IMG/VR virus record: IMGVR_UViG_3300002835_000066
Coordinates: 1-64,000 of that record
Length of the DNA stretch: 64,000 bases
DNA from: a virus
Taxonomy: Duplodnaviria > Heunggongvirae > Uroviricota > Caudoviricetes
Direction: 5' to 3' (one strand)
The notes under the pieces are model-generated. The model did no database searches. It was not told where the DNA came from and worked only from the letters and a program-made list of their open reading frames with translations. The position numbers were made by a program, and so were the translations under genes. Positions 2,732-16,541 of the stretch are shown piece by piece. How positions within the stretch are numbered: position 1 is the first letter of the stretch; each line of letters begins with the position of its first letter.

Positions 2732-2738
2732 TATATTC

Positions 2739-2856: not shown

Positions 2857-2933
2857 TGGTGACCCTGGCAGGGCTCGAACCTGCAACCCCAAGTTTAGAA
2901 GACTCGTACTCTATCCAGTTGAGCTACAGGGCC
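2857..2933 (-). tRNA. tRNA-Arg (anticodon TCT)
   Basis: GGCCCTGTAGCTCAACTGGATAGAGTACGAGTCTTCTAAACTTGG...GGTTCGAGCCCTGCCAGGGTCACCA. Confidence 0.8.
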
Positions 2934-2991
2934 AATCTCTTAATTACTTTTGTAATATAGCAAGTATTGACCGATTTGTCAATAAGAAAGT

Positions 2992-3729
2992 TTAATTTTG
3001 GGCAGATAGAAATCTAGAAAGATTTTCTGCAATTTGCTTATGTCCCAACTCACTTGGATGAGGAGACTTTTCACATGGTTCTACCTTCATCTTGTCAATT
3101 GAACATTGCATAATATCGTTGTTATACCAGTTAAAATTAGTGTTAGAGTACCTTAGTTGTGACTCACTTAATGGATTTGTAAACCCTTCATGTATCATCG
3201 TAAACACATACTTGATACCATGTGCTTTAAAAAAGTTACCTAATGCAGATATTTGAGTGAAGAACTGCTGACCTACGGCTGCATCAGTGCTATACGCATA
3301 ATGTGTTCGGATAATATCTTCTTGTTCGGTGTCGCTAAGTTCCCTGTCTGCGCTGCGAAATATCACAACATCGTGCTTTGCAACAGCCCAATCATTAGTA
3401 TTATTGTCAAAGAATTCAAATCTACTAGGTTCCGACCATTGAATGGCTACAGTCCAATCAGACATGTCTTCGCCGGTTAATACTTTAGGAACAAAGAAGT
3501 CAAGAGTTTTTCTAACGATACGTGCATTAGAGCCGCAGCCTATGCTATGATTGTGAAATTCAGTGCAACCAAGCTTATCTGATAGATGCTTAGGCCATGT
3601 TATGTTTAGACGATGTTTGTTTATATCAGACTGATTATGTTCGTCAAGTAAAGAACCGTGTTCATCATGGAGAGTTTTAATTAACTCTCCGCCCCACGTA
3701 AACGAACATCCACTAGCAAACAACTTCAT
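2992..3729 (-). CDS. SGNH/GDSL-like hydrolase family protein, paralog 1
   Basis: 245 aa. N-terminal FASGCSFTWGG resembles GDSx block I. A later GCGSNARI block resembles the GxND block. Similar size and N-terminal motif to ORFs 4615-5364 and 14296-15051. Confidence 0.4.
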   Translation of the reverse strand: MKLFASGCSFTWGGELIKTLHDEHGSLLDEHNQSDINKHRLNITWPKHLSDKLGCTEFHNHSIGCGSNARIVRKTLDFFVPKVLTGEDMSDWTVAIQWSEPSRFEFFDNNTNDWAVAKHDVVIFRSADRELSDTEQEDIIRTHYAYSTDAAVGQQFFTQISALGNFFKAHGIKYVFTMIHEGFTNPLSESQLRYSNTNFNWYNNDIMQCSIDKMKVEPCEKSPHPSELGHKQIAENLSRFLSAQN

Positions 3730-3745
3730 GTCACGACCTTAAGAA

Positions 3746-3821
<76 letters not shown>

Positions 3822-3827
3822 GAATTT

Positions 3828-3902
3828 TGGCTCCCTAAGATGGATTCGAACCACCGACCAATTGATTAACAGTCAACTGCGCTACCGCTGCGCCATTAGG
3901 GA
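3828..3902 (-). tRNA. tRNA-Asn (anticodon GTT)
   Basis: TCCCTAATGGCGCAGCGGTAGCGCAGTTGACTGTTAATCAAT...GGTTCGAATCCATCTTAGGGAGCCA. Confidence 0.85.
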
Positions 3903-3953
3903 ATAAACTCTATAAACTATTTAATCTTGTTATAGCAGCTTGACAAATAAATG

Positions 3954-4520
3954 TCAAGCCGCTAATTGAACAATTCTACTGTGTTTGGGCACACCGCTCA
4001 ACAGATACTCCATTTGGTCAGCAAGAATGCTGCGGTTTTGGAGAATCATGTTTTCGTAGTGGTTGGGTGCGTACGGAATGTACAACAGTTCCATACGAGA
4101 TTCCTTCAAACTCTTACAACCCTTCTTTTGATTGCAAGGGATGCAAGCAGTAACAACGTTAGTCCATTCGTCAATACCACCGTGGTACCTAGGTACAATG
4201 TGGTCTCGACTTAACTTACTATGATTGCCTATTTGAACACCGCAGTATCCGCACATGTTACGGTCACGGGCAAACAGCGTCTTGTTAGTCAAGATAACTT
4301 TGTTGTGCTTTTTGAAGTTAAAACCTTCACCCTTAACAGCAATGATGCTGGGAGTTTCGATATAACTCTGCGTACCATCATCTTGATAGCCGCCTCTATA
4401 TCTAGCAATAACGTCGCCTAGAGTCCAGGCAACCAAGTTCTTTGCATGATACGAAATTGCTTCGTCGTGGGAGACCCACGTTCTTGGGATACCCGATACG
4501 TCTAAGGCTAGTACTGCCAT
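3954..4520 (-). mobile_element. free-standing HNH homing endonuclease gene inside the tRNA array
   Basis: 188 aa. CGYCG...RDHIVPRYHGG...NVVTACIPCNQKKG reads as CxxC...DHxxP...N...CxxC, the zinc-finger HNH motif. Confidence 0.75.
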
Positions 4521-4614
4521 GTTATGCTCCTTTTTTAAAAATATTTAGACTGTCTTTAATATATACACTATAATCGTACTTAACGCAACCGAAATCTATA
4601 AATATGTTGTTGTT

Positions 4615-5364
4615 CTATTTTACGGAAAACAAATTTTTATGGAAAGAAGATGTACTGAAATCTAAAAAATTATCATCAGTTAGATATGCATATACTGCAT
4701 CCGTTAAGACATGATGATTTTTTTCGTGTAGATGATTCAGTCTAAAATCATCGGGACCATATTTTGTTATAAAATCCCACAATGTGCCGTCAGAAAATTC
4801 GTTGCCACTAACTTCAATCAACGAAAAATTAGCATGTTTGGGGAAATGTTTTGCGATAGATGCTTCATCCACGTCTACACTAATTGATACCGTGTTATTA
4901 GGCAGGCTATGTAATGTATGTAATAGCATGTACCGTTGCGCCGAAATTAAATCTTGATTTTTTAGTAAAAACCAATCTTTGTAAAAATTCTTAAATCTAT
5001 TATAATGTTCATTCGATTCAGATAGGTTAGCTATCATTTGTCGCGGGGCAGCTTCAAAATACTCAGGAAACACTTTAGAAAATGTGAATGCTGCCCACAT
5101 CGGAACAAATTCTTCTGCAACAACCGGACTTCGATAGCTGTCTGTTAAAACAAATATGATCTGATCGTTTGGATCATAATCGTCCCCGGTTAAATATTCA
5201 AAAAATTTTAAGGTTGAATACTCAAACGAAGTACCACGCTCACCGTATGTTTTATATTCTATTCCTAACCTATCGGCTAGCATTTTAAACCAAGTCGAAT
5301 GAGTGGCATTTTTGGGGTCGCTGGGCCACTCAGCAGTAAAACTATCACCGAATAATACTAACAT
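4615..5364 (-). CDS. SGNH/GDSL-like hydrolase family protein, paralog 2
   Basis: 249 aa. N-terminus MLVLFGDSFTAEW is the GDSx block I motif, with the Ser in the expected place. Confidence 0.45.
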   Translation of the reverse strand: MLVLFGDSFTAEWPSDPKNATHSTWFKMLADRLGIEYKTYGERGTSFEYSTLKFFEYLTGDDYDPNDQIIFVLTDSYRSPVVAEEFVPMWAAFTFSKVFPEYFEAAPRQMIANLSESNEHYNRFKNFYKDWFLLKNQDLISAQRYMLLHTLHSLPNNTVSISVDVDEASIAKHFPKHANFSLIEVSGNEFSDGTLWDFITKYGPDDFRLNHLHEKNHHVLTDAVYAYLTDDNFLDFSTSSFHKNLFSVK

Positions 5365-5374
5365 CTGTAATCCT

Positions 5375-6004
5375 TCACTCGTACCAGTCCAAGTTTTTCA
5401 ATTGCTCCAGTATAGATATTTTATCAGACGGCCTAAACAGGTGATAGATTATCCACTGCTTAGTATCTTTTAATCTTATTGGTCCATATGATTCATGGAG
5501 ATGTATTTTTCTGCCAGGTCTAGACCACCATTGCCCGTCATCATCTATATATGACGTTAGGTAATTACTAGGATCATTGACTTTTACATATCTAGCAACG
5601 TTTTCGTAATTGTATTCATTGAATGATAAAAAGCATCCAGCCGCACCTAATGCGCTTACTTCATGATAGATCATATCCTTGATGTCACCGTGAGTATTTC
5701 CGCAATTTTTTCCAGGAATTGTGTAACTACGAACACCGCAGCAAATCATATTATCTATCTCGGATAGATAATATCCTTGACCGCATATAATTTGCTCATT
5801 TTCTTTGCAAATTACATAACCATTCAATGCACCGTCAAATCTTTTTTCTTTGTATAGCAGGTATAGAAAAGTATGAGGTTTGTTTTCCCAATCATTGTAC
5901 TCCATGTTTCTTGCTCCATCCCTAGAATCCAAATCAGCGTTTTTACAAAACTCTGCCAATTCCTCTAGAGGATAACTACTATCAATTTTAAAGAGTTTGC
6001 GCAT
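5375..6004 (-). CDS. hypothetical protein (209 aa)
   Basis: ORF only. Cys-rich (ICGQG...CCG...CGNTHG). Confidence 0.45.
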   Translation of the reverse strand: MRKLFKIDSSYPLEELAEFCKNADLDSRDGARNMEYNDWENKPHTFLYLLYKEKRFDGALNGYVICKENEQIICGQGYYLSEIDNMICCGVRSYTIPGKNCGNTHGDIKDMIYHEVSALGAAGCFLSFNEYNYENVARYVKVNDPSNYLTSYIDDDGQWWSRPGRKIHLHESYGPIRLKDTKQWIIYHLFRPSDKISILEQLKNLDWYE

Positions 6005-6641
6005 TTATGTTCAATCTTGCTCGTGCGGCTTCTAAATTTTCGCTGAATAATTCATCATAGTTTTCAGCGAGAAGAAATTTAGCTTGTTTACCGTTTTGAT
6101 ATGCAGTCAACATCAACATCACATTGCGTTTGGTAACACCATACTTCAACAAGATAGCAAAACTTACTAAAAACCAACCAATAGATTTTGTTTGTGCAAA
6201 CGAAAACATCGCAAGCCTCATTTCTCCGATATCATTAGCAGGATAACCGGTAAGTGTATGCCATGTGTCGTGCGTGTCTCTGTATCTTCTTGCCATCCAG
6301 TTGTATGGATGTTTAGCCTCAATCCAATCATTATTTTTATTTTTTCTTCTACTTATTTTAAGCAGAATCTCTTGGTTGGGAAATAAATTATGACATTCTT
6401 TACCAACAGAACTGTTTGGCCTTTCAGCTAATGTGCCAAAGTAACTAGAAATTTCTTCTGAATCATATGCCGTTCTACCACCATAAGAAGTTTGAAGTAA
6501 TTTAGAGTATGTCCACTTAAGAGAAGGCGAATTTGTTGAGTGCAGTATTTCAAAAACAAAAATTGTATTTGTAGGATTTTTGCGCAACTTTTTAAATACT
6601 TTGTATGTCCTAAGTAAGTCAATTTTATATTTTAGATGCAT
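5988..6641 (-). CDS. Coq4-family protein (ubiquinone biosynthesis COQ4-like). HDxxH(x)11E metal motif present.
   Basis: 217 aa. DTHDTWHTLTGYPANDIGE matches the Coq4 signature HDxxHx11E exactly. Confidence 0.5.
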   Translation of the reverse strand: MHLKYKIDLLRTYKVFKKLRKNPTNTIFVFEILHSTNSPSLKWTYSKLLQTSYGGRTAYDSEEISSYFGTLAERPNSSVGKECHNLFPNQEILLKISRRKNKNNDWIEAKHPYNWMARRYRDTHDTWHTLTGYPANDIGEMRLAMFSFAQTKSIGWFLVSFAILLKYGVTKRNVMLMLTAYQNGKQAKFLLAENYDELFSENLEAARARLNINAQTL

Positions 6642-7383
6642 TTACCACAGTCCTAAGTTTCATATGAATCTTCTTTACTTCGGTAGAATTTGCTAGAAAC
6701 GTATTGAAATTGCCGTTTGGTTCTAAATCGTACATGTAAAGATGTTCATGTGTAAAAAGATATTTTAAAGTTGAGTTATAATATAATTCATAGGATGCTA
6801 CTATATCTTCCGCTCCTAAGAATGTTTCATCAAATCGAAACGATTCGGCACATTGTCTAGAATACAATAAAATTCTATTCCACGGAAGATGGTTTACCAT
6901 AAACTTTCCCAATGCAATCAAATTAAGTGCTTCTCTACCGTCTATTCCTGCGAATGAGTAGATATCAGAACTTTCAAAAAACTCTTGTACCATATACTGT
7001 TTACCTTGATATGTCATAGGATTGTTAGTAAGACCAAGAATATCTATATTAGGATTGTTTTGTATTATACTATGAATCTTATCGATGGCATTTGGAGTAA
7101 GATAATCATCACCATCTATTTGCGTGAGGTAATCATATTCTGTATTGAGAAAGAAATCGAGAACAGAGTTTTTACCCATTGCGGGAGTACCGTTAGATAT
7201 GGTAACCTCATATCTAATACCATATTTTTTACAAGTGTGTTGAGCAGACGTTGCGTATTGTGTATCCGCAGTGTTTATGATCACAACAATATCACTTAGT
7301 GGTGTTTGTTGTAATACGGATTTGATGCAGCGTTCAAGCTTGTCAATTTTATCTGATGTTAATATGGCGACTAGCGTATTCAT
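6625..7383 (-). CDS. glycosyltransferase family 2
   Basis: The true start is probably the internal Met (MNTLVAILTSDK..., cat at 7381-7383), because the longer ORF would overlap tRNA-Leu(GAG). IVVIINTAD and QIDGDDY (DxD) motifs are typical of GT-A/GT2. Confidence 0.65.
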   Translation of the reverse strand: MNTLVAILTSDKIDKLERCIKSVLQQTPLSDIVVIINTADTQYATSAQHTCKKYGIRYEVTISNGTPAMGKNSVLDFFLNTEYDYLTQIDGDDYLTPNAIDKIHSIIQNNPNIDILGLTNNPMTYQGKQYMVQEFFESSDIYSFAGIDGREALNLIALGKFMVNHLPWNRILLYSRQCAESFRFDETFLGAEDIVASYELYYNSTLKYLFTHEHLYMYDLEPNGNFNTFLANSTEVKKIHMKLRTVVNASKI

Positions 7384-7406
7384 ATCTATATTTACTATAT
7401 AATTTT

Positions 7407-7492
7407 TGGTGCCCAAGAAAAGACTCGAACTTTCACGGGCTTTCGCCCACAACGACCTCAACGTTGCGTGTCTACCATTCCACCACCTGGGC
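7407..7492 (-). tRNA. tRNA-Leu (anticodon GAG). Type II.
   Basis: GCCCAGGTGGTGGAATGGTAGACACGCAACGTTGAGGTCGTTG, long variable arm, GAAAGTTCGAGTCTTTTCTTGGGCACCA. Confidence 0.8.
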
Positions 7493-7496
7493 ATAT

Positions 7497-7590
7497 TGGT
7501 ACTCCCTACAGGATTCGAACCTGTGACGCTCTCTAATCTGGAGACGATGCTGGATATAAGCCAGGTGTTTTACCGCTAAACTAAGGGAGT
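7497..7590 (-). tRNA. atypical type II tRNA-like gene (94 nt, 24-nt variable region). Anticodon by standard numbering is TAT. Identity unclear.
   Basis: ACTCCCTTAGTTTAGCGGTAAAACACCTGGCTTATATCCAGCATCGTCTCCAGATTAGAGAGCGTCACAGGTTCGAATCCTGTAGGGAGTACCA. Perfect acceptor, D and T arms. Anticodon stem has 4 bp plus one mismatch. Confidence 0.45.
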
Positions 7591-7591
7591 A

Positions 7592-8260
7592 TTAGATTTT
7601 AAATGTGAATGCAAAAGATACGGTGTTGTCTTCACGCCAATCTTTTGTGTACAAGTCTTGAATTGAGAAACTAGTTTTCTCACTTAACTTGTATTTGATT
7701 TCAGCTTTGTTCTGAATGAAGGTTCTAGAACCTTCTTCAATCATAAACTTATTTGAAACTGAAACTGTTTTACTAAGGTTGTGACTAATCCATACACTTT
7801 CACGAACTACTACATCGCTGTATCCACCTGTACCGTGCTTGAAGCCAACGCTAAGTTCATTTGATATTTTAGTTTTATCAGTCTTTACGAGTCTGAAACC
7901 GTGACCGATGCTATATACTGCTTGATCTTCTGAAAATGTTCTTGGATCGTGTCTATATCTTGCACCAACTTGTAGATAGTGCTTAGGATGAATGTCCTGA
8001 TTGACTTTAGCAAATGCGTTAATCTGCTCTCTAGAAGTTACGCCGTTAGCACTCTTATAAAGAATATCACTTTCAAATGAGTATTCTCTAGGGCCGGTGT
8101 CAGTAACATGCTTGAAGGCTCCAGTAAGAACAATGTTATCATCATTGATAACTGTTCCACCTAATGAACCTGTTGTTTCTTTCTGAACCTGTGCATATGC
8201 AGGGAAAGAAAATAATAATGCTGCTGATAGTATAAGTGTTCTAAACATAGTAATCTCCAA
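7592..8260 (-). CDS. secreted outer-membrane beta-barrel-like protein (DUF481/YdiY-like)
   Basis: Signal peptide (MFRTLILSAALLFSFPAYAQ). Alternating amphipathic beta-strand pattern throughout. Ends in an aromatic residue (FAFTFKI), as OMP barrels do. Confidence 0.45.
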   Translation of the reverse strand: MEITMFRTLILSAALLFSFPAYAQVQKETTGSLGGTVINDDNIVLTGAFKHVTDTGPREYSFESDILYKSANGVTSREQINAFAKVNQDIHPKHYLQVGARYRHDPRTFSEDQAVYSIGHGFRLVKTDKTKISNELSVGFKHGTGGYSDVVVRESVWISHNLSKTVSVSNKFMIEEGSRTFIQNKAEIKYKLSEKTSFSIQDLYTKDWREDNTVSFAFTFKI

Positions 8261-8280
8261 ACTACTATTTAGTAATTTGG

Positions 8281-8351
8281 TGCTGATAAGAAGAATTGAA
8301 CTCCTGTCAACGGGTTACGAATCCGTAGTAATACCACTATACTATATCAGC
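8281..8351 (-). tRNA. putative tRNA-Thr (anticodon CGT). No encoded CCA and weak D and anticodon stems, so it may be degenerate.
   Basis: GCTGATATAGTATAGTGGTATTACTACGGATTCGTAACCCGTTGACAGGAGTTCAATTCTTCTTATCAGCA. Perfect 7-bp acceptor stem and good T arm. Confidence 0.4.
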
Positions 8352-8356
8352 AAGAA

Positions 8357-8926
8357 GTGACGCTGGGCTACCCTGTAAAATTAAAAAAAATATCTTTATT
8401 GATAAATAATATCATGAACAACATTATTACACCCTTAACCAACGTAGACTTTACTGCATGTATTGAAGAACTCAAGTCACACTTGGAACTTCGTATAATA
8501 GCCGTGCCGTCAGCAGAAGCTTGGACTGATATTTATTACTTCATGGTAACAGGGGCAGAGTTACCCATAACAGCTAATGTTCTTGCGGGACTAAATTTAT
8601 CAATAATAAATGTATTATACCTCGAAACGCAAGGAGGAAATGAATACTATCAGGGAACAACGCCTAATAGTTGTATTGTACTTCCTTTAGAAGAAATAGG
8701 GTCAACTGTCAGTGCTTATTCTGCGCCGTTAAATTCACCTAGACTACCTGACTATCCAAACGGTTATCATCCAGAAGATTGTACCTTAATTGAAAGTCAT
8801 TCAGCAGATGAACCGGTATTTCTTGGTTGTGCAATTGAAAATGCTGAACTTGTATATTCTTTCCAAGTTCCGAAAGACAAAATTTACAAGTCAATTGTTA
8901 TTTTCTTCAGTGAAGACACATTATAA
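8357..8926 (+). CDS. hypothetical protein (plus strand, 189 aa)
   Basis: ORF only. The start may be the internal Met at 8414. Confidence 0.35.
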   Translation: MTLGYPVKLKKISLLINNIMNNIITPLTNVDFTACIEELKSHLELRIIAVPSAEAWTDIYYFMVTGAELPITANVLAGLNLSIINVLYLETQGGNEYYQGTTPNSCIVLPLEEIGSTVSAYSAPLNSPRLPDYPNGYHPEDCTLIESHSADEPVFLGCAIENAELVYSFQVPKDKIYKSIVIFFSEDTL

Positions 8927-8949
8927 GTAATTCGTCTTAGTCAACTCAC

Positions 8950-9035
8950 TGGTGCCCCGAGAGGGACTTGAACCCCCACGCCCTAAGGGCAAAAGATTTT
9001 GAATCTTCCGCGTCTACCGATTCCACCATCGGGGC
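8950..9035 (-). tRNA. tRNA-Leu (anticodon CAA). Type II.
   Basis: GCCCCGATGGTGGAATCGGTAGACGCGGAAGATTCAAAATCTTTT, variable arm, GGGGGTTCAAGTCCCTCTCGGGGCACCA. Confidence 0.85.
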
Positions 9036-9223
9036 AGTAAATTGATCCGGTTTGTTTACATGTACGATAGCTGGCGGATATCATGATCCCCTATGTAACA
9101 TGGTTCAGCAGCCGGAACTGCTTAGTAGTGTCGGTTCAGCAGTTCAGGTACTTGTTTATAGACCCTCATAGTGTGCCTTGAAGCATCGTTCTAGACCGAT
9201 GACTTCTTCCGATTTCTGAAATT

Positions 9224-9309
9224 TGGTGCGGATGAAGGGACTCGAACCCCCACACCATTACGATACCAGTACCTAAAACTGGGGCGTCTACCAATTCCGC
9301 CACATCCGC
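9224..9309 (-). tRNA. tRNA-Leu (anticodon TAG). Type II.
   Basis: GCGGATGTGGCGGAATTGGTAGACGCCCCAGTTTTAGGTACTGG, variable arm, GGGGGTTCGAGTCCCTTCATCCGCACCA. Confidence 0.85.
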
Positions 9310-9314
9310 AATCT

Positions 9315-9842
9315 TTATAACCACCAAAGCAAACTGTTAGGTAAGTCTTGTGGTCTAATCGTATACCATATAGGCAACGTATATCTTAATCCATTACTAA
9401 CTTGTGTAACACCATGCTCAAGTTTATGACCATTGTATGCTACAACTCTTCCGGGCTTAGGTTGAACTTCAACTTTTTCTCCGTTAGACCTAGTAATAAA
9501 AGTTTGTCCCCCATCAAAATTATCATTTAGATAGAGAACACTTGTGCATAATCCCCATTCACCTGCTTGCATATCACGATGAGCCATATGCTCATTTTGT
9601 CTGCATTCAATGTGGGCACGTTGCACCATTAAATTCTCAGGTACATGTTTCATTATGAGTGAAACTTTCTCTCTAATGAAATCATCTACCGGTTTGCGTG
9701 TATAATGAGGGACAATCGCTTTGAACGGATAGTTATATCCGTGATCGGTTTCTAGCAGAGAACTTGTGTAGTAGGCAATTAAGCTATCACAGTCCTCAAT
9801 GCTCAACACATCATCAAGTATTGTTACTTCATCATCAAACAT
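9315..9842 (-). CDS. 2OG-Fe(II) oxygenase superfamily protein (prolyl 4-hydroxylase-like)
   Basis: 175 aa. An HxD...H arrangement (HMAHRDMQ ... YNGHKLEHGV) and overall resemblance to the small P4Hc-type oxygenases of marine phages. Confidence 0.55.
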   Translation of the reverse strand: MFDDEVTILDDVLSIEDCDSLIAYYTSSLLETDHGYNYPFKAIVPHYTRKPVDDFIREKVSLIMKHVPENLMVQRAHIECRQNEHMAHRDMQAGEWGLCTSVLYLNDNFDGGQTFITRSNGEKVEVQPKPGRVVAYNGHKLEHGVTQVSNGLRYTLPIWYTIRPQDLPNSLLWWL

Positions 9843-9988
9843 AATGTATTTACTCGCCGTAACTAGTGTCTCAAATTTAGTTACCGATACTAACTCAATA
9901 GTACTGCTACGGACATCAGGTACACTCCTGTTTGGTTTGAGAATGAAACAGGGTCACATATGGTCACCGTACACACACGAGTAAAATT

Positions 9989-10064
9989 TGGTGCTCCCAG
10001 ACGGGTTCGAACCGCCGACACCCTGATCTTCAATCAGGTGCTCTACCAACTGAGCTACAGGAGC
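9989..10064 (-). tRNA. tRNA-Phe (anticodon GAA)
   Basis: GCTCCTGTAGCTCAGTTGGTAGAGCACCTGATTGAAGATCAGG...GGTTCGAACCCGTCTGGGAGCACCA. Confidence 0.85.
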
Positions 10065-10071
10065 ATTTAAA

Positions 10072-10148
10072 TGGCGATCTGTACGGGACTTGAACCCGTG
10101 ACCTTTGGCGTGACAGGCCAACGCTCTAACCAACTGAGCTAACAGACC
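10072..10148 (-). tRNA. tRNA-Asp (anticodon GTC)
   Basis: GGTCTGTTAGCTCAGTTGGTTAGAGCGTTGGCCTGTCACGCCAA...GGTTCAAGTCCCGTACAGATCGCCA. Confidence 0.85.
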
Positions 10149-10155
10149 AATGAAT

Positions 10156-10503
10156 TTATGTTGTTTTATTGTTCTTATGCCACTGTCCATAAAAACAGTG
10201 TAGCATTTCGTGACCTACAAATTCAGGCTGATACTCAACTTTGGGATCAACCATATGTATCGTACATGTATCAAACGGTGGCTTAAGTTCACTAAACGCT
10301 ATGACATCTTTAGATGCAACATCTGCTCTATTACCTAGTACTTTCTGTAAATCAGCTTGTGATTTATAAGTGACAATTTTAATTTGCACTGTAGATTTTT
10401 CATATTGCTTTTCACCAAACCTATATCCATCGGCACCTTTCTGAGGCGCGGGATTACAACTGGTTAACAATAACAGTGCTACTAAAGATACTTTTTTAAA
10501 CAT
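10156..10503 (-). CDS. small lipoprotein with an HExxH zinc-metallopeptidase-like motif
   Basis: 115 aa. Lipobox LLLTSC. VGHEMLHCFYGQWH contains HExxH. Confidence 0.45.
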   Translation of the reverse strand: MFKKVSLVALLLLTSCNPAPQKGADGYRFGEKQYEKSTVQIKIVTYKSQADLQKVLGNRADVASKDVIAFSELKPPFDTCTIHMVDPKVEYQPEFVGHEMLHCFYGQWHKNNKTT

Positions 10504-10529
10504 AGAATAATTCCTCCTATGCTATTTAT

Positions 10530-10604
10530 TGGTAGCCCGAACGGGTTCCGACCCCGCTTCTCTGCCTTGAAAGGGCAGTGTCCTAGCCACTAGACGACCG
10601 GGCC
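10530..10604 (-). tRNA. tRNA-Glu (anticodon TTC)
   Basis: GGCCCGGTCGTCTAGTGGCTAGGACACTGCCCTTTCAAGGCAG...GTCGGAACCCGTTCGGGCTACCA. The T-loop has G54 (GTCGGAA). Confidence 0.75.
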
Positions 10605-10610
10605 ATATTT

Positions 10611-10686
10611 TGGTGGAGCCTACGGGGATTGAACCCGTGACCTTCTGTCTGCCAGACAGATGCTCTCCCAGCTGAGCTAAAGCCCC
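10611..10686 (-). tRNA. tRNA-Ala (anticodon GGC)
   Basis: GGGGCTTTAGCTCAGCTGGGAGAGCATCTGTCTGGCAGACAGA...GGTTCAATCCCCGTAGGCTCCACCA. G3-U70 and A73 Ala identity elements. Confidence 0.8.
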
Positions 10687-10695
10687 AAAATTTTA

Positions 10696-12054
10696 TTATT
10701 TGTATAGCCAACCAAGCTCAGGAAACGTCTTCATGAAATCGGTTCCTCTGACTCTATCCATATTAGAATATTCTCGCATATGCTTCAAATGGTCTTCTGT
10801 AGGTTGAACAAAAAATTCCATATCCTGCTGATTCATTTTTCGCAGTTCTTTTATTTTGTTGATTCCTTCGTTGAGCATTTCAGTTTTTACTACATAATAC
10901 TCTGTGTTAGCAATAATAGTATCGCAATACCAAACTTGAAACTCGTCCAATGATAGTTCAACCATTTCCCAATGTTCTTGTGGCATGTTAATAATACTAA
11001 GATGATTTGGATTTCTTAACAAATTACAAAATAGGAAATATTCAAAAATTGCGTTTTTGTCCTGTGCCATAGAAAACTGATACGCTTGCTTATCTATAAT
11101 TTCTTGCATCATTTCTTTCAAGCGATGAACATTGAGAGAACTTATCACCGGCGAATATACTAGCAGGTGAGTCATTTCATCCTCGTTGCGTAGTTGCTCA
11201 AATGACTCTTGAATCTTCTTAAGATTTTCTGATATAGTTTCCCAATCACCGGGCCAGCGTATGTAATTGAATCTGTCGTGTACTTCGTCTACGCTTGCTA
11301 TTACAACAACAGACTTAAACTGTTTCCAGTAGTCTAGTATATGTTTATCTTTATAGCGAAGTGTGCTGCAATTAGAGGAGTATCTTAATTCTACCTCTTT
11401 ACATCTGTTATTTTCTATTAGTCTATCAAGCGTGTACCAGTGATATTCTGATAACAGTGGCTCGCCGCCTGCAAAGTATATAGTTTCAACACTTTCTATA
11501 TTATCATCTATCAACTTATATGCTAGAGTTTTATCCTGTGGCTCAATAAATTTTGTTCCTACAATCGGATAACCTAACTTGTTCATCAAATCAAACCAAC
11601 TAGAACTTAAATCATGATTGCAAGTAATACATGCTTGATTGCATTTATTAGTGAACCTAAAATCAAGATATTTTAGTTTATTAGTTTTCAACTCTCCTGA
11701 CGGGAGAAGTTTATCCATGTACTCATCATAGTTTTTAGAATAGTTTGCATTGGCTATTGTTCTAGCACTAGACTTACTGAACTTTTCTGTGTCATAACAA
11801 AAAGAACAAGCGGGATTTTTCTCCCCTTGAACCATATTCTTTCTAAATTCTTTATACCGTTCTCCGTTCCACACTGAGTTCCAGTCAGAAACTTCATTGA
11901 TGTTTCCTAAAGATTCTTTTGACATATCGCCTACACAACAGGGCATAACATTGCCGTTCGGGGAGACATAAGTGTGTAGAAGACCTAACATACAGAATGT
12001 TGGATTAGAATTTAAATTATGCTCTTTAGTCATACACGAGTATTTATTCAGCAT
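10696..12054 (-). CDS. radical SAM enzyme with an N-terminal SPASM/twitch-like Cys-rich domain (domain order reversed)
   Basis: Start placed at the internal Met (MLNKYSC..., cat at 12052-12054), because the longer ORF overlaps two tRNA-Pro genes. Residues 20-90 read CMLG...NGNVMPCC...GN...W...NPACSFC, a SPASM/twitch-like pattern. The radical-SAM CxxxCxxC box FTNKCNQACITCN follows. A GGEP-like FAGGEPLL SAM-binding motif is also present. Confidence 0.6.
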   Translation of the reverse strand: MLNKYSCMTKEHNLNSNPTFCMLGLLHTYVSPNGNVMPCCVGDMSKESLGNINEVSDWNSVWNGERYKEFRKNMVQGEKNPACSFCYDTEKFSKSSARTIANANYSKNYDEYMDKLLPSGELKTNKLKYLDFRFTNKCNQACITCNHDLSSSWFDLMNKLGYPIVGTKFIEPQDKTLAYKLIDDNIESVETIYFAGGEPLLSEYHWYTLDRLIENNRCKEVELRYSSNCSTLRYKDKHILDYWKQFKSVVVIASVDEVHDRFNYIRWPGDWETISENLKKIQESFEQLRNEDEMTHLLVYSPVISSLNVHRLKEMMQEIIDKQAYQFSMAQDKNAIFEYFLFCNLLRNPNHLSIINMPQEHWEMVELSLDEFQVWYCDTIIANTEYYVVKTEMLNEGINKIKELRKMNQQDMEFFVQPTEDHLKHMREYSNMDRVRGTDFMKTFPELGWLYK

Positions 12055-12073
12055 ATGAGGGTACTCTATAAAC

Positions 12074-12152
12074 TGGTCGGGAATGTAGGATTCGAACCTA
12101 CGATCTCCTGGCCCCAAACCAGGCGGATTAAACCAGACTTTCCTAATTCCCG
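12074..12152 (-). tRNA. tRNA-Pro (anticodon TGG), second copy with a divergent D-arm
   Basis: CGGGAATTAGGAAAGTCTGGTTTAATCCGCCTGGTTTGGGGCCAGGAGATCGTAGGTTCGAATCCTACATTCCCGACCA. Acceptor and T arm are identical to the copy at 2655-2731. Confidence 0.6.
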
Positions 12153-12158
12153 TTGAAT

Positions 12159-12235
12159 TGGTCGGGGTAGCCGGATTTGAACCGACGACCACTTGTCCCC
12201 CAGACAAGTGCGCTACCAGGCTGCGCTATACCCCG
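12159..12235 (-). tRNA. tRNA-Pro (anticodon GGG)
   Basis: CGGGGTATAGCGCAGCCTGGTAGCGCACTTGTCTGGGGGACAAG...GGTTCAAATCCGGCTACCCCGACCA. Confidence 0.85.
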
Positions 12236-12242
12236 TTGGGTT

Positions 12243-12330
12243 TGGTGGAGTCGGTGAGATTCGAACTCACGGTACCTTTCGGTACGCTACCTTTCCAAGA
12301 TAGTCTAATCGGCCACTCTAGCACGACTCC
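12243..12330 (-). tRNA. tRNA-Ser (anticodon GGA). Type II.
   Basis: GGAGTCGTGCTAGAGTGGCCGATTAGACTATCTTGGAAAGGTAG, long variable arm, GTGAGTTCGAATCTCACCGACTCCACCA. Confidence 0.8.
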
Positions 12331-12468
12331 TTGAAATGGCGCGCCCGCTTTTTTTCTATACTGGGGCTACTTTCGGAAGGTAGTCCATGTATGCGGACGC
12401 ATAAGATTGGAGGGCAGCGGTAACGGTTGTTCGTCACTATTGCAGTGGGTATCACTCGCCGCCATAAG

Positions 12469-12660
12469 TTAAAGTCCGAGAAAATGCATTACTAGCTTGA
12501 AGGGCCAGACATGTTCCCAGAGAAAGTGTTCTAATGGATAGCTGATAGTTACGCCAATCCAAAATCTATAATCAGTAATCAAATTTGAACACGAATTCAT
12601 ACACCGAACTAACAGTCCGGTCTTCTTATCTTCGTGATAATGTGGTTCATGTTCTTTCAT
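12469..12660 (-). CDS. possible small ORF (63 aa, His-rich N-terminus MKEHEPHYHEDKK) in the 400-bp gap inside the tRNA array
   Basis: The ORF-track entry 12469..12855 overlaps tRNA genes. Only the part below 12729 can be coding. No motif support. Confidence 0.2.
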   Translation of the reverse strand: MKEHEPHYHEDKKTGLLVRCMNSCSNLITDYRFWIGVTISYPLEHFLWEHVWPFKLVMHFLGL

Positions 12661-12728
12661 ACAATGTCTATCTCTTTGTGCATATACTAGTATACTATAT
12701 ATCAAGCAGCTTGTCAACCTAGTAATAA

Positions 12729-12803
12729 TGGTACACCCTACTGGGTTTGAACCAGTGACCTTTTCCATGTCAAGGAAATGCTCTACCGCTGAGCTAAGGG
12801 TGC
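12729..12803 (-). tRNA. tRNA-Val (anticodon GAC)
   Basis: GCACCCTTAGCTCAGCGGTAGAGCATTTCCTTGACATGGAAA...GGTTCAAACCCAGTAGGGTGTACCA. Confidence 0.85.
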
Positions 12804-12810
12804 ATGAAAC

Positions 12811-12888
12811 TGGGGTGAAAGACGGGACTCGAACCCGCGACATTCGGTACCACAAACCGACGCTCTAACCAACTGAGCTACAATCACC
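12811..12888 (-). tRNA. tRNA-His (anticodon GTG) with an encoded G-1 opposite C73
   Basis: G-GTGATTGTAGCTCAGTTGGTTAGAGCGTCGGTTTGTGGTACCGA...GGTTCGAGTCCCGTCTTTCACCCCA. The extra 5' G and C73 are the His hallmark. Two U-U mismatches in the acceptor stem. Confidence 0.75.
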
Positions 12889-12894
12889 ATAAAC

Positions 12895-12968
12895 TGGCAT
12901 ACGCTGTAGGAGTCGAACCCACGCTAACTGGGTTGGAACCAGTCGTGCTACCGTAACACTTAGCGTAC
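12895..12968 (-). tRNA. tRNA-Trp (anticodon CCA), second and divergent copy
   Basis: GTACGCTAAGTGTTACGGTAGCACGACTGGTTCCAACCCAGT...GGTTCGACTCCTACAGCGTATGCCA. G73. Confidence 0.6.
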
Positions 12969-12975
12969 ATGAAAT

Positions 12976-13052
12976 TGGTGCCCGCGGAAGGATTCGAACC
13001 TCCGACCCTCAGATTCGTAATCTGATGCTCTATCCAGCTGAGCTACGCGGGC
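12976..13052 (-). tRNA. tRNA-Arg (anticodon ACG)
   Basis: GCCCGCGTAGCTCAGCTGGATAGAGCATCAGATTACGAATCTGA...GGTTCGAATCCTCCGCGGGCACCA. Confidence 0.85.
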
Positions 13053-13059
13053 ATTAACT

Positions 13060-13136
13060 TGGTGGACCCTGAGGGATTCGAACCCCCGACATTCTGTTTC
13101 GAAGACAGACGCTCTATCCAGCTGAACTAAGGGTCC
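13060..13136 (-). tRNA. tRNA-Arg (anticodon TCG)
   Basis: GGACCCTTAGTTCAGCTGGATAGAGCGTCTGTCTTCGAAACAGA...GGTTCGAATCCCTCAGGGTCCACCA. Confidence 0.8.
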
Positions 13137-13149
13137 GATAAATAATAGC

Positions 13150-14235
13150 ATGAATATTTACTACGTAGACTTAATCCCGTATTTTAACCTCTATCATGAA
13201 TTTACAATTCCTAAAGGCATTGAAAGGGTGAAAGCATTAATCAGTGACAAAGATAACAAAATAATACTATCTGCGGTATGGGAAATATGGCCGCATGAAA
13301 AAATCCTAACTGCACTAGAAATACTAGGAGTTACTCCTAATCAAGACAATGTTGTGCTACTGTTAGATGTTTATAGTTACAGCGAACCCAATCATTGGAC
13401 CACTGTAAATACCGTATTATATGATTCTTTGCTGTGTAGAGTACATAAATCAGAGAATCCTGAGTTTGGTCCTAATCTAGACAATGACAAAATATTGTTT
13501 AAAATAGGAACTCCTTATAAAAAACAACGAATATTTACATTATACGATTTGTACCAGCGAAATGAACTCGCTAAGTGCGAATGGTCATTGCATTACGGGT
13601 CTCATCTAGAAGATGCAGTGCGTTGTTATTTGCCTAATATGTCTGATGATGCGTATCAAAGATTTATAACCGATACTGTTAGAAAAATTGATGATGTCTC
13701 ACCAAACTTTGGAACGGGCACTACTAATTTTTATCCAATTGCGTTTAGCCCTACAGCCGAAATGTATGCTAAAACGGCTGTTAGTTTAGTTACTGAAACT
13801 ACATTTCATCCTGAGTATTACTGGTTTATCACAGAAAAAACTTGGAAAACAATTAATAATTTTCATCCCTTCGTGCTAATAGGCTACAAAAAAACGTATG
13901 AATATTTGCATTCCTTAGGATTTGATACCTTTCAGTATGCAGTAAAACATCCATATGAAACATTAGTAGGACCAGAAGAAGATGTAATTAGAATGTGCGT
14001 TGACAATGTGTTGCATTTATTAAGCAACAAAGATCTGCATAGAGACAAACTCACTAAATCCGTGATTAACAATAAAAAAGTATTTACTGATTTAGCAGAC
14101 ACGTATAACAACAAAGTAAACCCATACATAGAAGATTTGATTTGGAATCACTCACTTCAAAAAGTGAGTGATGACCATTCTGTAGAAGTTTATGAAAAAC
14201 TTTGGGGCAAGTATGGTGCTGTTGGAGAGGATTGA
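13150..14235 (+). CDS. hypothetical protein (plus strand, 361 aa)
   Basis: Long ORF convergent with the tRNA array. No motif I recognise. Confidence 0.45.
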   Translation: MNIYYVDLIPYFNLYHEFTIPKGIERVKALISDKDNKIILSAVWEIWPHEKILTALEILGVTPNQDNVVLLLDVYSYSEPNHWTTVNTVLYDSLLCRVHKSENPEFGPNLDNDKILFKIGTPYKKQRIFTLYDLYQRNELAKCEWSLHYGSHLEDAVRCYLPNMSDDAYQRFITDTVRKIDDVSPNFGTGTTNFYPIAFSPTAEMYAKTAVSLVTETTFHPEYYWFITEKTWKTINNFHPFVLIGYKKTYEYLHSLGFDTFQYAVKHPYETLVGPEEDVIRMCVDNVLHLLSNKDLHRDKLTKSVINNKKVFTDLADTYNNKVNPYIEDLIWNHSLQKVSDDHSVEVYEKLWGKYGAVGED

Positions 14236-14289
14236 ACTCTCGACCTCTTCATTACCAATGAAGTGCTACTACCACTGAGCTACAACAGC
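14217..14289 (-). tRNA. tRNA-Thr (anticodon GGT). CCA not encoded.
   Basis: GCTGTTGTAGCTCAGTGGTAGTAGCACTTCATTGGTAATGAAG...GAGAGTTCAATCCTCTCCAACAGCA. Confidence 0.7.
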
Positions 14290-14295
14290 GTCATG

Positions 14296-15051
14296 CTATT
14301 TATTAGAAATATTTGACCAAATATATTTGGCTAAAAATTCATTAAAGTCTTTACCGCTATGCACTAGATCTCTTGCTAGTTCACTGCATGAAGTGTTGGC
14401 ACGTAGTACAGATATTTGATCAGGAATAGCATATAAGTTTACTCCGTGCTTAGTAGTCAATTGTCGTAACATAATTTCTAACAGTAGAAACTTTGTATTA
14501 TTGTATCCGAATGTGTCGGATAAAATCATAAAATCACGTAAATCATTATTGTCTTTTGCAGACCACGGCCCTTCAAATGATATCGTTTTATTTTGGGATA
14601 TCAATGGAAATCTAGACATTCCTGTTTGTTGAAATACAATTGTTTTTGGAGGATTGAAATTAGTAAGTAACCAAACTAGGTTTAAAAAGCTAACTTCGTT
14701 AGAGGAACCTCCTAATCCCATATTGTAGACGGGAATTCCTGCTAAATTTTCAAGATGACAAGAATACGTATCTTCATGATGAATCCCAGTACCCATAGTA
14801 TGTGAACAGCCTATTGTCACGATATAGGGGGCGTGTTGAATAACATCTAAAGAATGATGATTTCTGAAACCATAATTGTCAGACTTATATGTAAGCTGAA
14901 CTAGCGAATCGTAGTATTTCCAAGATTCACCTAATCTTGCTCGATTGGTGAAAAACTTTTCTTTGGAATCACTGCCATAAAAGTGAAAAGTAGTGTTCTC
15001 TACTAGAGCAATTCTATTGCCATAAAAAATAGGAAAAGTATGTTGTAACAT
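14296..15051 (-). CDS. SGNH/GDSL-like hydrolase family protein, paralog 3
   Basis: 251 aa. TIGCSHTMGTG in the block I position and GLGGSSNEVS in the block III position. Confidence 0.35.
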   Translation of the reverse strand: MLQHTFPIFYGNRIALVENTTFHFYGSDSKEKFFTNRARLGESWKYYDSLVQLTYKSDNYGFRNHHSLDVIQHAPYIVTIGCSHTMGTGIHHEDTYSCHLENLAGIPVYNMGLGGSSNEVSFLNLVWLLTNFNPPKTIVFQQTGMSRFPLISQNKTISFEGPWSAKDNNDLRDFMILSDTFGYNNTKFLLLEIMLRQLTTKHGVNLYAIPDQISVLRANTSCSELARDLVHSGKDFNEFLAKYIWSNISNK

Positions 15052-15071
15052 GCAAGCAGCCTTACTCTCTT

Positions 15072-15145
15072 TGGATGCCCCACGAGGACTCGAACCTCGA
15101 TTGACGGAGTCAAAGTCCGCTCTCTTACCATTAGAGGATGGGGCA
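15072..15145 (-). tRNA. tRNA-Gln (anticodon TTG)
   Basis: TGCCCCATCCTCTAATGGTAAGAGAGCGGACTTTGACTCCGT...GGTTCGAGTCCTCGTGGGGCATCCA. U1-A72 is typical of Gln. Confidence 0.8.
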
Positions 15146-15196
15146 GCATCAATATACGTGTATTATATATGCTCTATAGAGCAATGTCAAATATTT

Positions 15197-15272
15197 TGGA
15201 TGCCCGACTAGGGCTCGAACCTAGAACCTACTGAGTCAGAGTCAGTCGATCTACCAATTGATCTATCGGGCA
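15197..15272 (-). tRNA. tRNA-Gln (anticodon CTG)
   Basis: TGCCCGATAGATCAATTGGTAGATCGACTGACTCTGACTCAGT...GGTTCGAGCCCTAGTCGGGCATCCA. Confidence 0.8.
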
Positions 15273-15980: not shown

Positions 15981-16541
15981 ATGAATTACGATTCCTTCTC
16001 TCACGGTCAAATCCAAAGCAAAGTCTGGCTTTGCAAAGAACTTGAACGCTTTGTCCATGCTAACATCAAGATTGCTATCTTAGGTAGCTGGTACAACGTG
16101 CTTTCATTTATGCTTCTAACACGAAACGCGGATAGATATCAATACATTTTGGGCGTAGACATTGACCCGGAGACAAAAGAGATTGCTGACAAGCTTACCG
16201 AAGCATGGCGAATCGGTAAGGATTATAAGGTTGAGAACATTATAGCGGACGCAAATGGTGTAAATTTAGCAGGCTACGACCTTGTAATCAACTGCTCACC
16301 GGAGCATATGAAGGGCAATGATTGGTTTGAGAATCTTGAGTACGGCACTATGGTGTGTATTCAATCAAGTGACGTACAGACAGCGGACGATGATGTTTGG
16401 AAGTGTGTCAACTCTAATGAGTCGTTGGAAGACCTGACACTAAAATACCCGTTATCAAAGTATCTTTACTCCGGGGAGAAGGAGATTAGATATAGCGATG
16501 ATAACGGGTATACGAGATTTATGCTAATCGGTATTAAATAA
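15981..16541 (+). CDS. possible class I SAM-dependent methyltransferase-like protein
   Basis: 186 aa. A Rossmann-like motif I region (IAILGSWYNVLSFMLL ... GVDIDPE), an acidic residue after beta-2, and DLVINCSP. Weak call. Confidence 0.3.
   Translation: MNYDSFSHGQIQSKVWLCKELERFVHANIKIAILGSWYNVLSFMLLTRNADRYQYILGVDIDPETKEIADKLTEAWRIGKDYKVENIIADANGVNLAGYDLVINCSPEHMKGNDWFENLEYGTMVCIQSSDVQTADDDVWKCVNSNESLEDLTLKYPLSKYLYSGEKEIRYSDDNGYTRFMLIGIK

Follow-up and report, generated by a model that had tools for sequence, protein, structure and literature searches.

An N-terminal twitch domain ahead of the radical-SAM core in a phage protein of family NF033640, and the gene neighbourhoods of its relatives

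The window analysed here, 64,000 nucleotides of a virus of the class Caudoviricetes (IMG/VR record IMGVR_UViG_3300002835_000066), carries between two tRNA genes a gene for a radical-SAM protein with a Cys-rich, SPASM/twitch-like segment ahead of its catalytic core. The auxiliary domain of SPASM/twitch enzymes described so far reportedly follows the core (Grell, Goldman and Drennan 2015). The locus thus raises two questions, whether this domain order is genuine and what an enzyme built in this way may do in the midst of a tRNA island.

Gene integrity, domain order and family

Positions 10696..12054 of the minus strand form a single uninterrupted ORF of 452 codons plus stop. The true start is likely at 12033, yielding a 445-residue product: this start is preferred because the homologs all begin at Met8 in both the 21- and 78-sequence alignments, and initiation at 12054 adds seven residues found in no homolog. 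Residues are numbered below along the 452-codon ORF (C21, C138 and so on), except where the 445-residue numbering from Met8 (C14, C131 and so on) is indicated. The CX3CX2C box, which the initial annotation located at about residue 190, occupies residues 138-145; the higher figure is its position in a longer 503-residue ORF with a TTG start that runs through two tRNA genes. A promoter and terminator scan around the gene returned no signal exceeding the shuffled expectation, and a DNA search of cultured phages for near-identical sequence matched tRNA fragments only.

Pfam analysis reports a SPASM domain (PF13186) at residues 21-86, spanning model positions 1-66 of 67 with 45.5 bits (cut-off 21.5; E 9.5e-12), and a Radical_SAM domain (PF04055, above the gathering score) at residues 134-286. 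The N-terminal position of the Cys-rich domain, first noticed from the sequence alone, is thereby upheld, and with it the departure from the described order. The corresponding translation is CMLGLLHTYVSPNGNVMPCCVGD...NPACSFC. A PDB profile search aligns this domain to the twitch domain of BtrN (4m7s residues 161-240, E 2e-8), identifying it as a true SPASM/twitch homolog, while the TIGR04085 model scores 21.2, below its cut-off of 27. An unrelated zinc ribbon, the other identity considered for this segment, is ruled out by the same BtrN alignment. Eight cysteines (C21, C39, C40, C83, C86, C138, C142 and C145) are invariant among 21 aligned sequences; among 78 sequences seven remain invariant and C21 is kept in at least 90%. 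In both alignments only five conserved cysteines belong to the N-terminal domain and none follows the core, and the second SPASM motif (CX2CX5CX3C...C, 7-8 Cys) is absent. With a single auxiliary-cluster motif (CX12GX4C...CX2C), the domain is therefore a twitch rather than a full SPASM domain.

Both the CX3CX2C and the GGE SAM-binding motifs of PF04055 are present in the core, and C138, C142 and C145 are invariant in the 78 sequences; SAM cleavage and cluster binding are accordingly predicted from sequence. Foldseek analysis against the PDB reports weak whole-chain matches (TMq at most 0.34) and no solved structure with the same overall architecture; the core is most similar to BlsE, SkfB, anSME, MoaA and viperin. 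A pVip/viperin assignment was set aside, since the PADLOC pVip match is weak and confined to the core (E 1.8e-7, 28.9 bits; PDB viperin E 1.4e-6) and a twitch domain is present. Behind the core, the all-helical C-terminal domain returns no Pfam match above threshold. It ends in a conserved D..R...FPEL tail (D433, R436, P445 and E446 in the 21-sequence alignment).

The protein matches the NCBIfam model NF033640 (N_Twi_rSAM, "twitch domain-containing radical SAM protein") with 310 bits against a cut-off of 170 (E 2.6e-92), residues 17-448 being colinear with positions 1-395 of the 398 in the model. A further HMM, derived from 78 homologs, likewise aligns to it over positions 1-410. Judged by sequence comparison, the Pfam E-values and this full-length match are far beyond chance and the protein is a genuine member of the family. 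Relatives amount to 7,204 representatives (50%-identity clusters, E<=1e-30) and are found in the genomes of 329 bacterial species as well as in 595 or more viral stretches. The suggestion that a circularly permuted family would be new thus does not hold: NF033640 already defines the layout, and more than 7,000 clusters share it. NF033640 is a curated sequence model without an assigned function. Its CX3CX2C core, its N-terminal twitch Cys motif and its C-terminal helices all recur in the window protein; the window copy differs from the family at large in being phage-encoded, single and set among tRNA genes. Family members are fused only to additional N_Twi copies, to TPR repeats or to unannotated extensions, some genes consisting of tandem copies fused into one polypeptide. 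Literature searches covering N-terminal twitch or SPASM domains, permuted SPASM and the NCBIfam product name turned up neither a paper on the family nor a characterised member, and those for the accessions of syntenic contigs were likewise without result.

The same data dispose of the concern, raised at the outset, that the look of a permuted enzyme could stem from a frameshift, from faulty assembly or from the fusion of two genes. The ORF is unbroken and colinear with a curated full-length HMM, the domain order is identical in the 7,204 clusters, orthologs at 56-90% identity share the length of the window protein, and its AlphaFold2 model is compact (pLDDT 94.2, pTM 0.92), so that the probability of an artefact is practically negligible.

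Gene neighbourhoods in the window and beyond

Table 1. Positions in the window of the radical-SAM (rSAM) gene, its domains and its candidate partners
Feature	Position	Strand	Basis or remark
GT-B-fold glycosyltransferase-like gene, family v1	885..2000	minus	
DUF6071 gene, viral partner family v22	2992..3729	minus	Pfam DUF6071 E 1e-11; v22 HMM E 4.6e-15
GT2-like (GT-A, DxD) glycosyltransferase candidate	6670..7383	minus	L001 homolog
tRNA-Ala(GGC), 9 nt downstream of rSAM stop	10611..10686	minus	context only
N_Twi radical-SAM gene, likely start	10696..12033	minus	445 aa; NF033640 match, homolog starts
C-terminal all-helical domain, family-specific, without Cys	10699..11130	minus	AF2 secondary structure
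Radical-SAM partial TIM-barrel core with invariant GGE motif	11197..11655	minus	
CX3CX2C (CNQACITC), predicted ligands of the SAM-binding [4Fe-4S] cluster	11620..11643	minus	translation, invariant Cys
Twitch domain, one auxiliary [4Fe-4S] motif C-X12-G-X4-C(C)...C-X2-C	11797..11994	minus	Pfam SPASM, BtrN alignment
tRNA-Pro(TGG), immediately upstream of rSAM start	12074..12152	minus	context only
Second v1 (GT-B-like) gene	13150..14235	plus	v1 HMM E 8.3e-26
Weak second v22-like gene	14296..15051	minus	v22 HMM E 7e-6
Viral partner family v12 member	15981..16541	plus	v12 HMM E 2.4e-39

Several genes of the window belong to families that accompany N_Twi genes elsewhere (Table 1). Family v1, assigned a GT-B-like fold by fold search, ranks by frequency among the top two virus-specific neighbours of these genes; its second window copy is divergent from the rSAM gene, with the tRNA gene block between them, and is kept at the same place in a syntenic 346.7-kb contig (L001) that repeats the layout around the rSAM gene, tRNA arrangement included. 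In viral loci, family v22 adjoins N_Twi genes in 9 cases of 10, and its HMM also matches proteins beside the rSAM arrays of contigs L092 and L094, among them an SGNH-like 267-residue protein of L092. The weak v22-like gene returns no match in Pfam or PHROG. The GT2-like candidate is 36% identical over 253 residues to an L001 gene with a weak PF00535 (Glycos_transf_2) match. Family v12 also comprises ORF347 of the cultured Ralstonia jumbo phage RsoM2USA (E 2.4e-43), two genes downstream of the N_Twi rSAM ORF349; the module of this phage, in which ORF352-353 are GT8-like, comes directly after the tail sheath gene and another gene whose product mass spectrometry has confirmed as a virion structural protein. 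A search of the window for extra rSAM copies, a carbamoyltransferase or an NDP-sugar epimerase found none. The partners are separated from the rSAM gene by tRNA genes and unrelated small genes, one of them lying on the opposite strand. With a single rSAM copy and scattered partners, the case for co-function is weaker in the window than in compact arrays.

Such arrays are the rule among the 80 viral loci that were compared (1.15 Mb), 72 of which carry two to seven family copies, these counts not being independent since many of the loci come from related phages with the same synteny. L092 holds six to seven copies, L094 at least eight and Vibrio phage K566 four, and 33 of the 78 bacterial loci contain extra copies, up to eight. 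Among the viral neighbours, family v2 resembles GT8 enzymes (glycogenin, NleB) through its DxD motif (PDB profile E 0.002). An NDP-sugar epimerase is encoded in 11 loci (adjacent in 9) and a carbamoyltransferase in 8 (adjacent in 5), the latter overlapping the stop or start of the rSAM gene in two distant phages. PDB sequence searches with partner families v0, v1 and v3 returned no match. The v3 gene, located upstream of viral arrays, encodes a Gly/Ser/Thr-rich protein; this placement and the TPR fusions would agree with a peptide or protein as substrate, too. In bacteria, GT2 enzymes are the commonest neighbour family (10 of 258 de-duplicated neighbours), accompanied by GDSL/SGNH proteins, TagH/Wzt-like ABC ATPases, AsnB-type amidotransferases, NodU-like carbamoyltransferases, methyltransferases, and CysD/CysN with a sulfotransferase; the enrichment is modest, most neighbours being without a Pfam match. 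Across marine and freshwater phages, Bdellovibrionota and Bacteroidota, family genes are consistently found within glycosylation-type clusters.

Candidate functions

Given these neighbourhoods, we lean, with somewhat better than even confidence, towards a radical sugar- or glycan-tailoring enzyme that performs one step of a phage glycosylation module. C14, C32, C76 and C79 (445-residue numbering) would hold one fully Cys-ligated auxiliary [4Fe-4S] cluster which, by analogy with BtrN-type enzymes, may take or give the electron that resolves the substrate radical. The invariant C33 beside C32 may serve as H-atom donor, and the substrate is probably capped by the C-terminal helical domain. From gene context, that is by guilt by association, the substrate would most likely be a sugar, either a nucleotide-sugar or a sugar already present on a glycan or glycoprotein, and the tailoring step could be an oxidation, an epimerisation, a dehydration or a similar reaction. 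The usual viral module would combine two to seven rSAM paralogs with glycosyltransferases of both GT8-like and GT-B-fold type, with NDP-sugar epimerases, a carbamoyltransferase and SGNH-like proteins. That of the window phage would be reduced to one rSAM enzyme, two GT-B-fold genes, DUF6071-type genes and the GT2-like gene, with tRNA genes interleaved. A tail or fibre protein of the virion, or the host envelope, is the candidate bearer of the glycan.

The location of the gene first suggested an enzyme that modifies tRNA, or another RNA. Same-strand tRNA genes indeed flank it within 9-40 nt, making co-transcription probable; the arrangement recurs in the 346.7-kb relative, and in bacterial loci 8 of the 11 tRNA genes have a family gene no more than 2 kb away. 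Against this, the island also holds an unrelated HNH endonuclease, Coq4, DUF481, a 2OG oxygenase and a lipoprotein, and the 80 viral loci contain one tRNA gene in all, none within 2 kb of a family gene and none at all in L004, L008, L010, L011 and L094. Just six loci supply the bacterial cases, and several of these are Bdellovibrionota loci that resemble one another in arrangement; because they are few and alike we read their tRNA proximity as insertion of islands at tRNA genes. Moreover, Pfam and NCBIfam searches found no TRAM, PUA, THUMP or other RNA-binding domain and no match to the MiaB, RlmN/Cfr or TYW1 families, and arrays of up to eight paralogs are unlike tRNA modification enzymes. 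The tRNA association is local to the lineage of the window phage, and an RNA substrate, tRNA being the one first proposed, has become very improbable. Not much better placed, and in our view improbable, is a nucleotide-modifying enzyme of the viperin/MoaA type serving phage-host conflict or DNA hypermodification: several invariant arginines of the alignments could bind phosphates, but a nucleotide-sugar substrate explains the same features. The relevant matches span the generic core only, far below family thresholds, and genes for kinases, nucleotidyltransferases or DNA modification do not recur beside the family. To our knowledge viperins are devoid of an auxiliary cluster, whereas the window protein possesses a twitch domain.

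A more serious contender, although we consider it unlikely, is a RiPP-like peptide or protein maturase, the paralogs of an array each introducing a radical modification (epimerisation, methylation or a cross-link) into a virion protein or a ribosomal peptide, with v3 as one candidate substrate. Among characterised SPASM/twitch enzymes the majority mature peptides; structure searches place SkfB, SuiB and CteB high on their lists, and the N-terminal domain gives weak NCBIfam matches to sactipeptide and mycofactocin maturases. TPR-repeat fusions occur in some members, v3/v9-like structural genes adjoin the arrays, and one multi-rSAM contig carries upstream small ORFs and an Asp/Arg hydroxylase. 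The NCBIfam maturase matches are nevertheless far below their cut-offs and limited to the twitch segment, Pfam and NCBIfam searches of the protein found no RRE or leader-binding domain, and precursor, protease and C39-exporter families are unmatched among the annotated neighbours. The recurrent partners are instead glycosyltransferases and sugar-nucleotide enzymes. The peptide substrate also put forward initially keeps some fitting features, such as the TPR fusions, while the neighbourhoods favour carbohydrate chemistry.

If the glycan-tailoring reading is correct, these enzymes would extend the range of reactions known to shape the surface glycans of phages and bacteria. More tentatively, and here we are rather doubtful, N_Twi arrays might, with glycosyltransferases of GT8-like and GT-B-fold type and the uncharacterised families v0, v4 and v6 as partners, constitute an undescribed viral radical glycan-tailoring pathway that decorates the host surface, or tail or fibre proteins of the virion, with heavily modified sugars. 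The window phage would then carry a reduced form scattered through its tRNA island. Such a pathway would be the first radical-SAM-dependent phage glycosylation system and would provide a function for more than 7,000 clusters. For annotation, the lesson is that a position in a phage tRNA island is poor ground for inferring a tRNA-related function.

Comparison with known systems

The closest relative of the N-terminal domain is found in BtrN, the 2-deoxy-scyllo-inosamine dehydrogenase and prototype twitch enzyme (PDB 4m7s/4m7t), which acts on a sugar-like substrate and whose auxiliary cluster is thought to accept an electron from the substrate radical. The twitch domains are homologous, and their C...C and CxxC cluster motifs align. 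The two proteins differ in other respects: the twitch follows the core in BtrN and precedes it in the window protein; BtrN, of about 250 residues, is devoid of the C-terminal helical domain and of the extra invariant cysteine of the CC pair; and the similarity of the cores is low. BlsE (cytosylglucuronate decarboxylase, 7vob), SkfB, anSME and MoaA align to the window protein in the core only. As for the domain order, an auxiliary Fe-S site is encoded ahead of the radical-SAM core in MiaB/RimO and in LipA, which are therefore precedents for an N-terminal auxiliary-cluster region.

Two habits distinguish the family as a whole: its divergent paralogs, up to eight in number, stand in tandem arrays, and they reside in glycosylation-type clusters. 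Environmental viral genomes of T4-like type have been reported to carry as many as 12 radical-SAM genes (Nishimura et al. 2017, PMC5332604), in a paper that gives neither a domain analysis nor a function for these genes. Going by that description, L092 and L094 represent the same kind of array, with N_Twi paralogs as its units, whereas the window phage differs from those multi-rSAM genomes in carrying a single copy.

Gene layout and family membership

The gene under study is a single unbroken ORF of 452 codons, flanked by tRNA-Pro(TGG) and tRNA-Ala(GGC) genes. The initial annotation had placed a SPASM/twitch-like Cys domain ahead of the radical-SAM (rSAM) core, and Pfam placement together with direct translation bears this out: SPASM (PF13186) covers residues 21-86 (E 9.5e-12, model positions 1-66 of 67) and Radical_SAM (PF04055) residues 134-286. 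The CxxxCxxC box, put there at about residue 190, occupies residues 138-145; the former value fits a 503-aa TTG ORF running through two tRNA genes. Since all homologs in alignments of 21 and 78 sequences start at the second Met of the window ORF, the true gene is probably 10696..12033, encoding 445 aa. With one auxiliary-cluster motif only (C-X12-G-X4-C ... C-X2-C), the N-domain is, judging by its sequence, a twitch rather than a full SPASM domain. The domain order is reversed (twitch, then core), a true circular permutation being no more than a possibility. Five N-domain Cys (C21, C39, C40, C83, and C86 in 452-aa numbering), the three core Cys and the GGE motif, several Arg, His, Tyr, Trp, and Asp residues, and the C-terminal tail D..R...FPEL are invariant or near-invariant among aligned homologs. 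AlphaFold, run on an alignment of 78 sequences, yields a compact model of high confidence (pLDDT 94.2, pTM 0.92).

This layout, initially proposed as a new radical-SAM family, is already catalogued as NCBIfam NF033640 (N_Twi_rSAM, "twitch domain-containing radical SAM protein"), in which "N_Twi" is by our own interpretation N-terminal twitch. Residues 17-448 match model positions 1-395 of 398 with 310 bits, the curated cut-off being 170. Because the architecture is catalogued, the window protein adds a phage-encoded member to a family that is known but uncharacterised; a literature search found no paper describing this family or the order of its domains. With a profile of 78 homologs, 7,204 cluster representatives (50% identity) are recovered at E<=1e-30, rising to 16,201 when the threshold is relaxed to E<=1e-10. 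Many representatives are 790-1,466 aa long with two or three matched stretches, and look like fused tandem copies. Other members carry C-terminal TPR repeats or unannotated N-terminal extensions of 135-240 aa; P0121-P0146, P0209, and P0226 illustrate these various layouts. Of the species genomes scanned, 329 contain relatives; most belong to Bdellovibrionota and Bacteroidota, with Acidobacteriota and other groups also represented. In IMG/VR, relatives are encoded in at least 595 stretches of viral contigs.

Family neighbourhoods and the window island

Family genes occur in arrays. Extra paralogs, up to eight, lie beside the query match in 33 of 78 bacterial loci, and 72 of 80 viral loci, which are not phylogenetically independent, hold 2-7 copies. 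The T4-like contig that encodes P0019, an ortholog with 63% identity, harbours 6-7 paralogs; at least 8 are present on a further contig and 4 in Vibrio phage K566. The window has one copy only. A 2017 survey (PMC5332604) had recorded, without explanation, T4-like viral genomes from the sea that carry as many as 12 radical-SAM genes. In the phage-like metagenomic contigs L008, L010, and L011, N_Twi rSAM genes adjoin 700-851-aa B12-binding and other radical-SAM genes; in L008, four short ORFs (75-90 aa) and a gene for an Asp/Arg hydroxylase are also present upstream. On the T4-like phage contig L092, ARAGORN calls a permuted tmRNA-like gene (13393-13809, tag peptide AANDNVAFEMRLAA) a few kb from the rSAM array.

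The context of the family is of the glycosylation type. Many viral contigs conserve the order v9 – v3 – v4 – two v2 – v6 or v11 – v0 – N_Twi rSAM ×2-5 – v5 – v1 – v22 or v7, the v numbers denoting partner families clustered from viral neighbourhoods: v9 is tail-fibre-like, v3 Gly/Ser/Thr-rich (~316 aa), v5 another rSAM, and v2 resembles GT8 glycosyltransferases (glycogenin, NleB) via the nucleotide-sugar/DxD region (E 0.002, PDB profile). Of the 80 viral loci, 11 contain NDP-sugar epimerase/dehydratase homologs (adjacent in 9) and 8 NodU-type carbamoyltransferases (adjacent in 5), the latter overlapping the rSAM stop/start in two distant phages. In bacteria, the GT2 glycosyltransferase is the commonest neighbour family (10 of 258 de-duplicated neighbours, a modest enrichment with many neighbours unannotated), accompanied by GDSL/SGNH proteins, TagH/Wzt-like polysaccharide-export ATPases, further radical-SAM genes, methyltransferases, AsnB-type amidotransferases, PhyH and WelO5-like oxygenases, and, in Crocinitomicaceae, CysD/CysN with a sulfotransferase; tRNA-modification, RRE, leader-peptidase, and precursor families were absent from these 258. 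In four loci from Flavobacteriales, Crocinitomicaceae, Saprospiraceae, and a Henriciella MAG (L020, L026, L062, L076), 1-3 N_Twi rSAM genes occur together with 1-8 genes for PhyH dioxygenases and one for a TagH-like ABC ATPase. Large GDSL proteins and a WelO5-like oxygenase are encoded in most of them, and L026 adds CysD/CysN and a sulfotransferase. Such gene content resembles that of a pathway whose exported product would be sulfated and heavily oxidised.

An experimentally tractable version of the module occurs in a cultured jumbo phage of Ralstonia, RsoM2USA, where it spans ORF347-355 (L177, 209786-228691), every gene being annotated as hypothetical. Its ORF356 is a virion protein by mass spectrometry and ORF359 the tail sheath gene (PMC8504454). 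The module directly follows these two genes, a position that hints at glycosylation of a virion protein.

Window ORFs were scanned with HMMs built from the viral partner clusters. The partner genes found are not contiguous with the rSAM gene, and the window returned no v0, v2, v3, v4, or v5 with these HMMs and no carbamoyltransferase or epimerase. Because v1, v22, and v12 matches and a GT2-like gene lie in the tRNA island, the latter looks like a reduced glycosylation module with tRNA and other small genes interleaved. The island also includes genes that are plainly unrelated, for an HNH endonuclease, Coq4, DUF481, a 2OG-Fe(II) oxygenase, and a small lipoprotein, which speaks against a tRNA-linked role. 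The 115-aa ORF directly downstream of the rSAM gene keeps its position in L001, a 346.7-kb contig syntenic with the window. Two copies each of tRNA-Pro(TGG) and tRNA-Trp(CCA) are present, and the tRNA-Ile(TAT), far above normal class I length and equally long in L001, could reflect an intron, an insertion, or a mis-call. Outside the island, a segment (residues ~575-716) of a protein of 1,219 aa is similar to proteins from cyanophages, pelagiphages, and other sources that serve in tail fibres, capsid decoration, or virion structure, and v9, the head family of the viral module, matches this ORF.

Features of the window and genes of the RsoM2USA module
Feature	Position	Remark
v1 gene (GT-B-fold-like)	885..2000	HMM E 2.7e-72
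v22 gene (Pfam DUF6071)	2992..3729	partner HMM
HNH endonuclease	3954-4520	tRNA island
Coq4-like gene	5988-6641	tRNA island
GT2-like candidate	6670..7383	36% identical to GT2-like gene of L001
tRNA-Ile(TAT)	7497-7590	94 nt; L001 14106-14199
DUF481 protein	7592-8260	tRNA island
2OG-Fe(II) oxygenase	9315-9842	tRNA island
115-aa ORF	10156-10503 (-)	lipoprotein-type signal (…LLLTSC), HExxH motif (HEMLH); weak PHROG match only, family of unknown function
tRNA-Ala(GGC)	10611..10686	
N_Twi rSAM ORF	10696..12054 (-)	
CNQACITC	11620..11643	direct translation
CMLG...PCCVGD...ACSFC	11797..11994	direct translation
tRNA-Pro(TGG)	12074..12152	
v1 gene	13150..14235	HMM E 8e-26
v22 gene, weak	14296..15051	partner HMM
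v12 gene	15981..16541	partner HMM
3,191-aa ORF	48647-58222 (-)	very large
1,219-aa ORF	58274-61933 (-)	very large
v3/v9-like	RsoM2USA ORF355	
v4	RsoM2USA ORF354	
GT8-like	RsoM2USA ORF353, ORF352	
v6	RsoM2USA ORF351	
v0	RsoM2USA ORF350	
N_Twi rSAM	RsoM2USA ORF349	
v0	RsoM2USA ORF348	
v12	RsoM2USA ORF347	

Alternative roles and the proposed reaction

That the reversed layout is an artefact has a negligible probability: orthologs at 56-90% identity keep the length and layout of the window protein, one of them on L001 in synteny that includes the tRNAs, so that a frameshift, mis-assembly, or chance fusion, initially raised as a caveat, is ruled out. A role in tRNA modification, initially suggested by the surroundings of the gene, is very improbable. 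The gene does lie among 28 tRNA genes (697..15272), all on the minus strand as it is, a placement common to the window and L001, but the tRNA neighbourhood is limited to this phage lineage: across the 80 viral loci, 1.15 Mb in all, there is a single tRNA gene, and no family gene has one within 2 kb; five other phage-like loci have no tRNA gene, and the protein has no RNA-binding domain or tRNA-modification family match in Pfam or NCBIfam. In the 79 bacterial loci scanned, 8 of 11 tRNA genes lie <=2 kb from a family gene; since all come from six loci, of which several belong to Bdellovibrionota and share a similar arrangement, this proximity looks like genomic islands beside tRNA genes.

A peptide or protein substrate, to which the TPR fusions of some members and the v3 protein of the viral module point, is a lesser possibility, and a nucleotide-modifying role of the viperin type is improbable. 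Carbohydrate tailoring is the role that we favour, with moderate confidence. The CX3CX2C cluster would cleave SAM to yield a 5'-deoxyadenosyl radical, which would abstract an H atom from a sugar carbon of an NDP-sugar or of a glycan-bound sugar. The twitch cluster may then take up or give back an electron and so resolve the radical on the substrate, a step proposed for BtrN; oxidation, epimerisation, dehydration, or a related change would result. The gene matters for the role of its very large family and for a link to phage glycosylation that can be put to the test, rather than for the permutation.

A PDB profile search aligns the N-domain with the twitch domain of BtrN (E 2e-8), the cluster Cys being in register. 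Of the two Cys in the invariant CC pair, the first is the counterpart of a BtrN ligand, which makes the second an extra conserved residue that may serve as an H-atom donor. The N-domain is homologous to the BtrN twitch domain, but possesses this additional conserved Cys.
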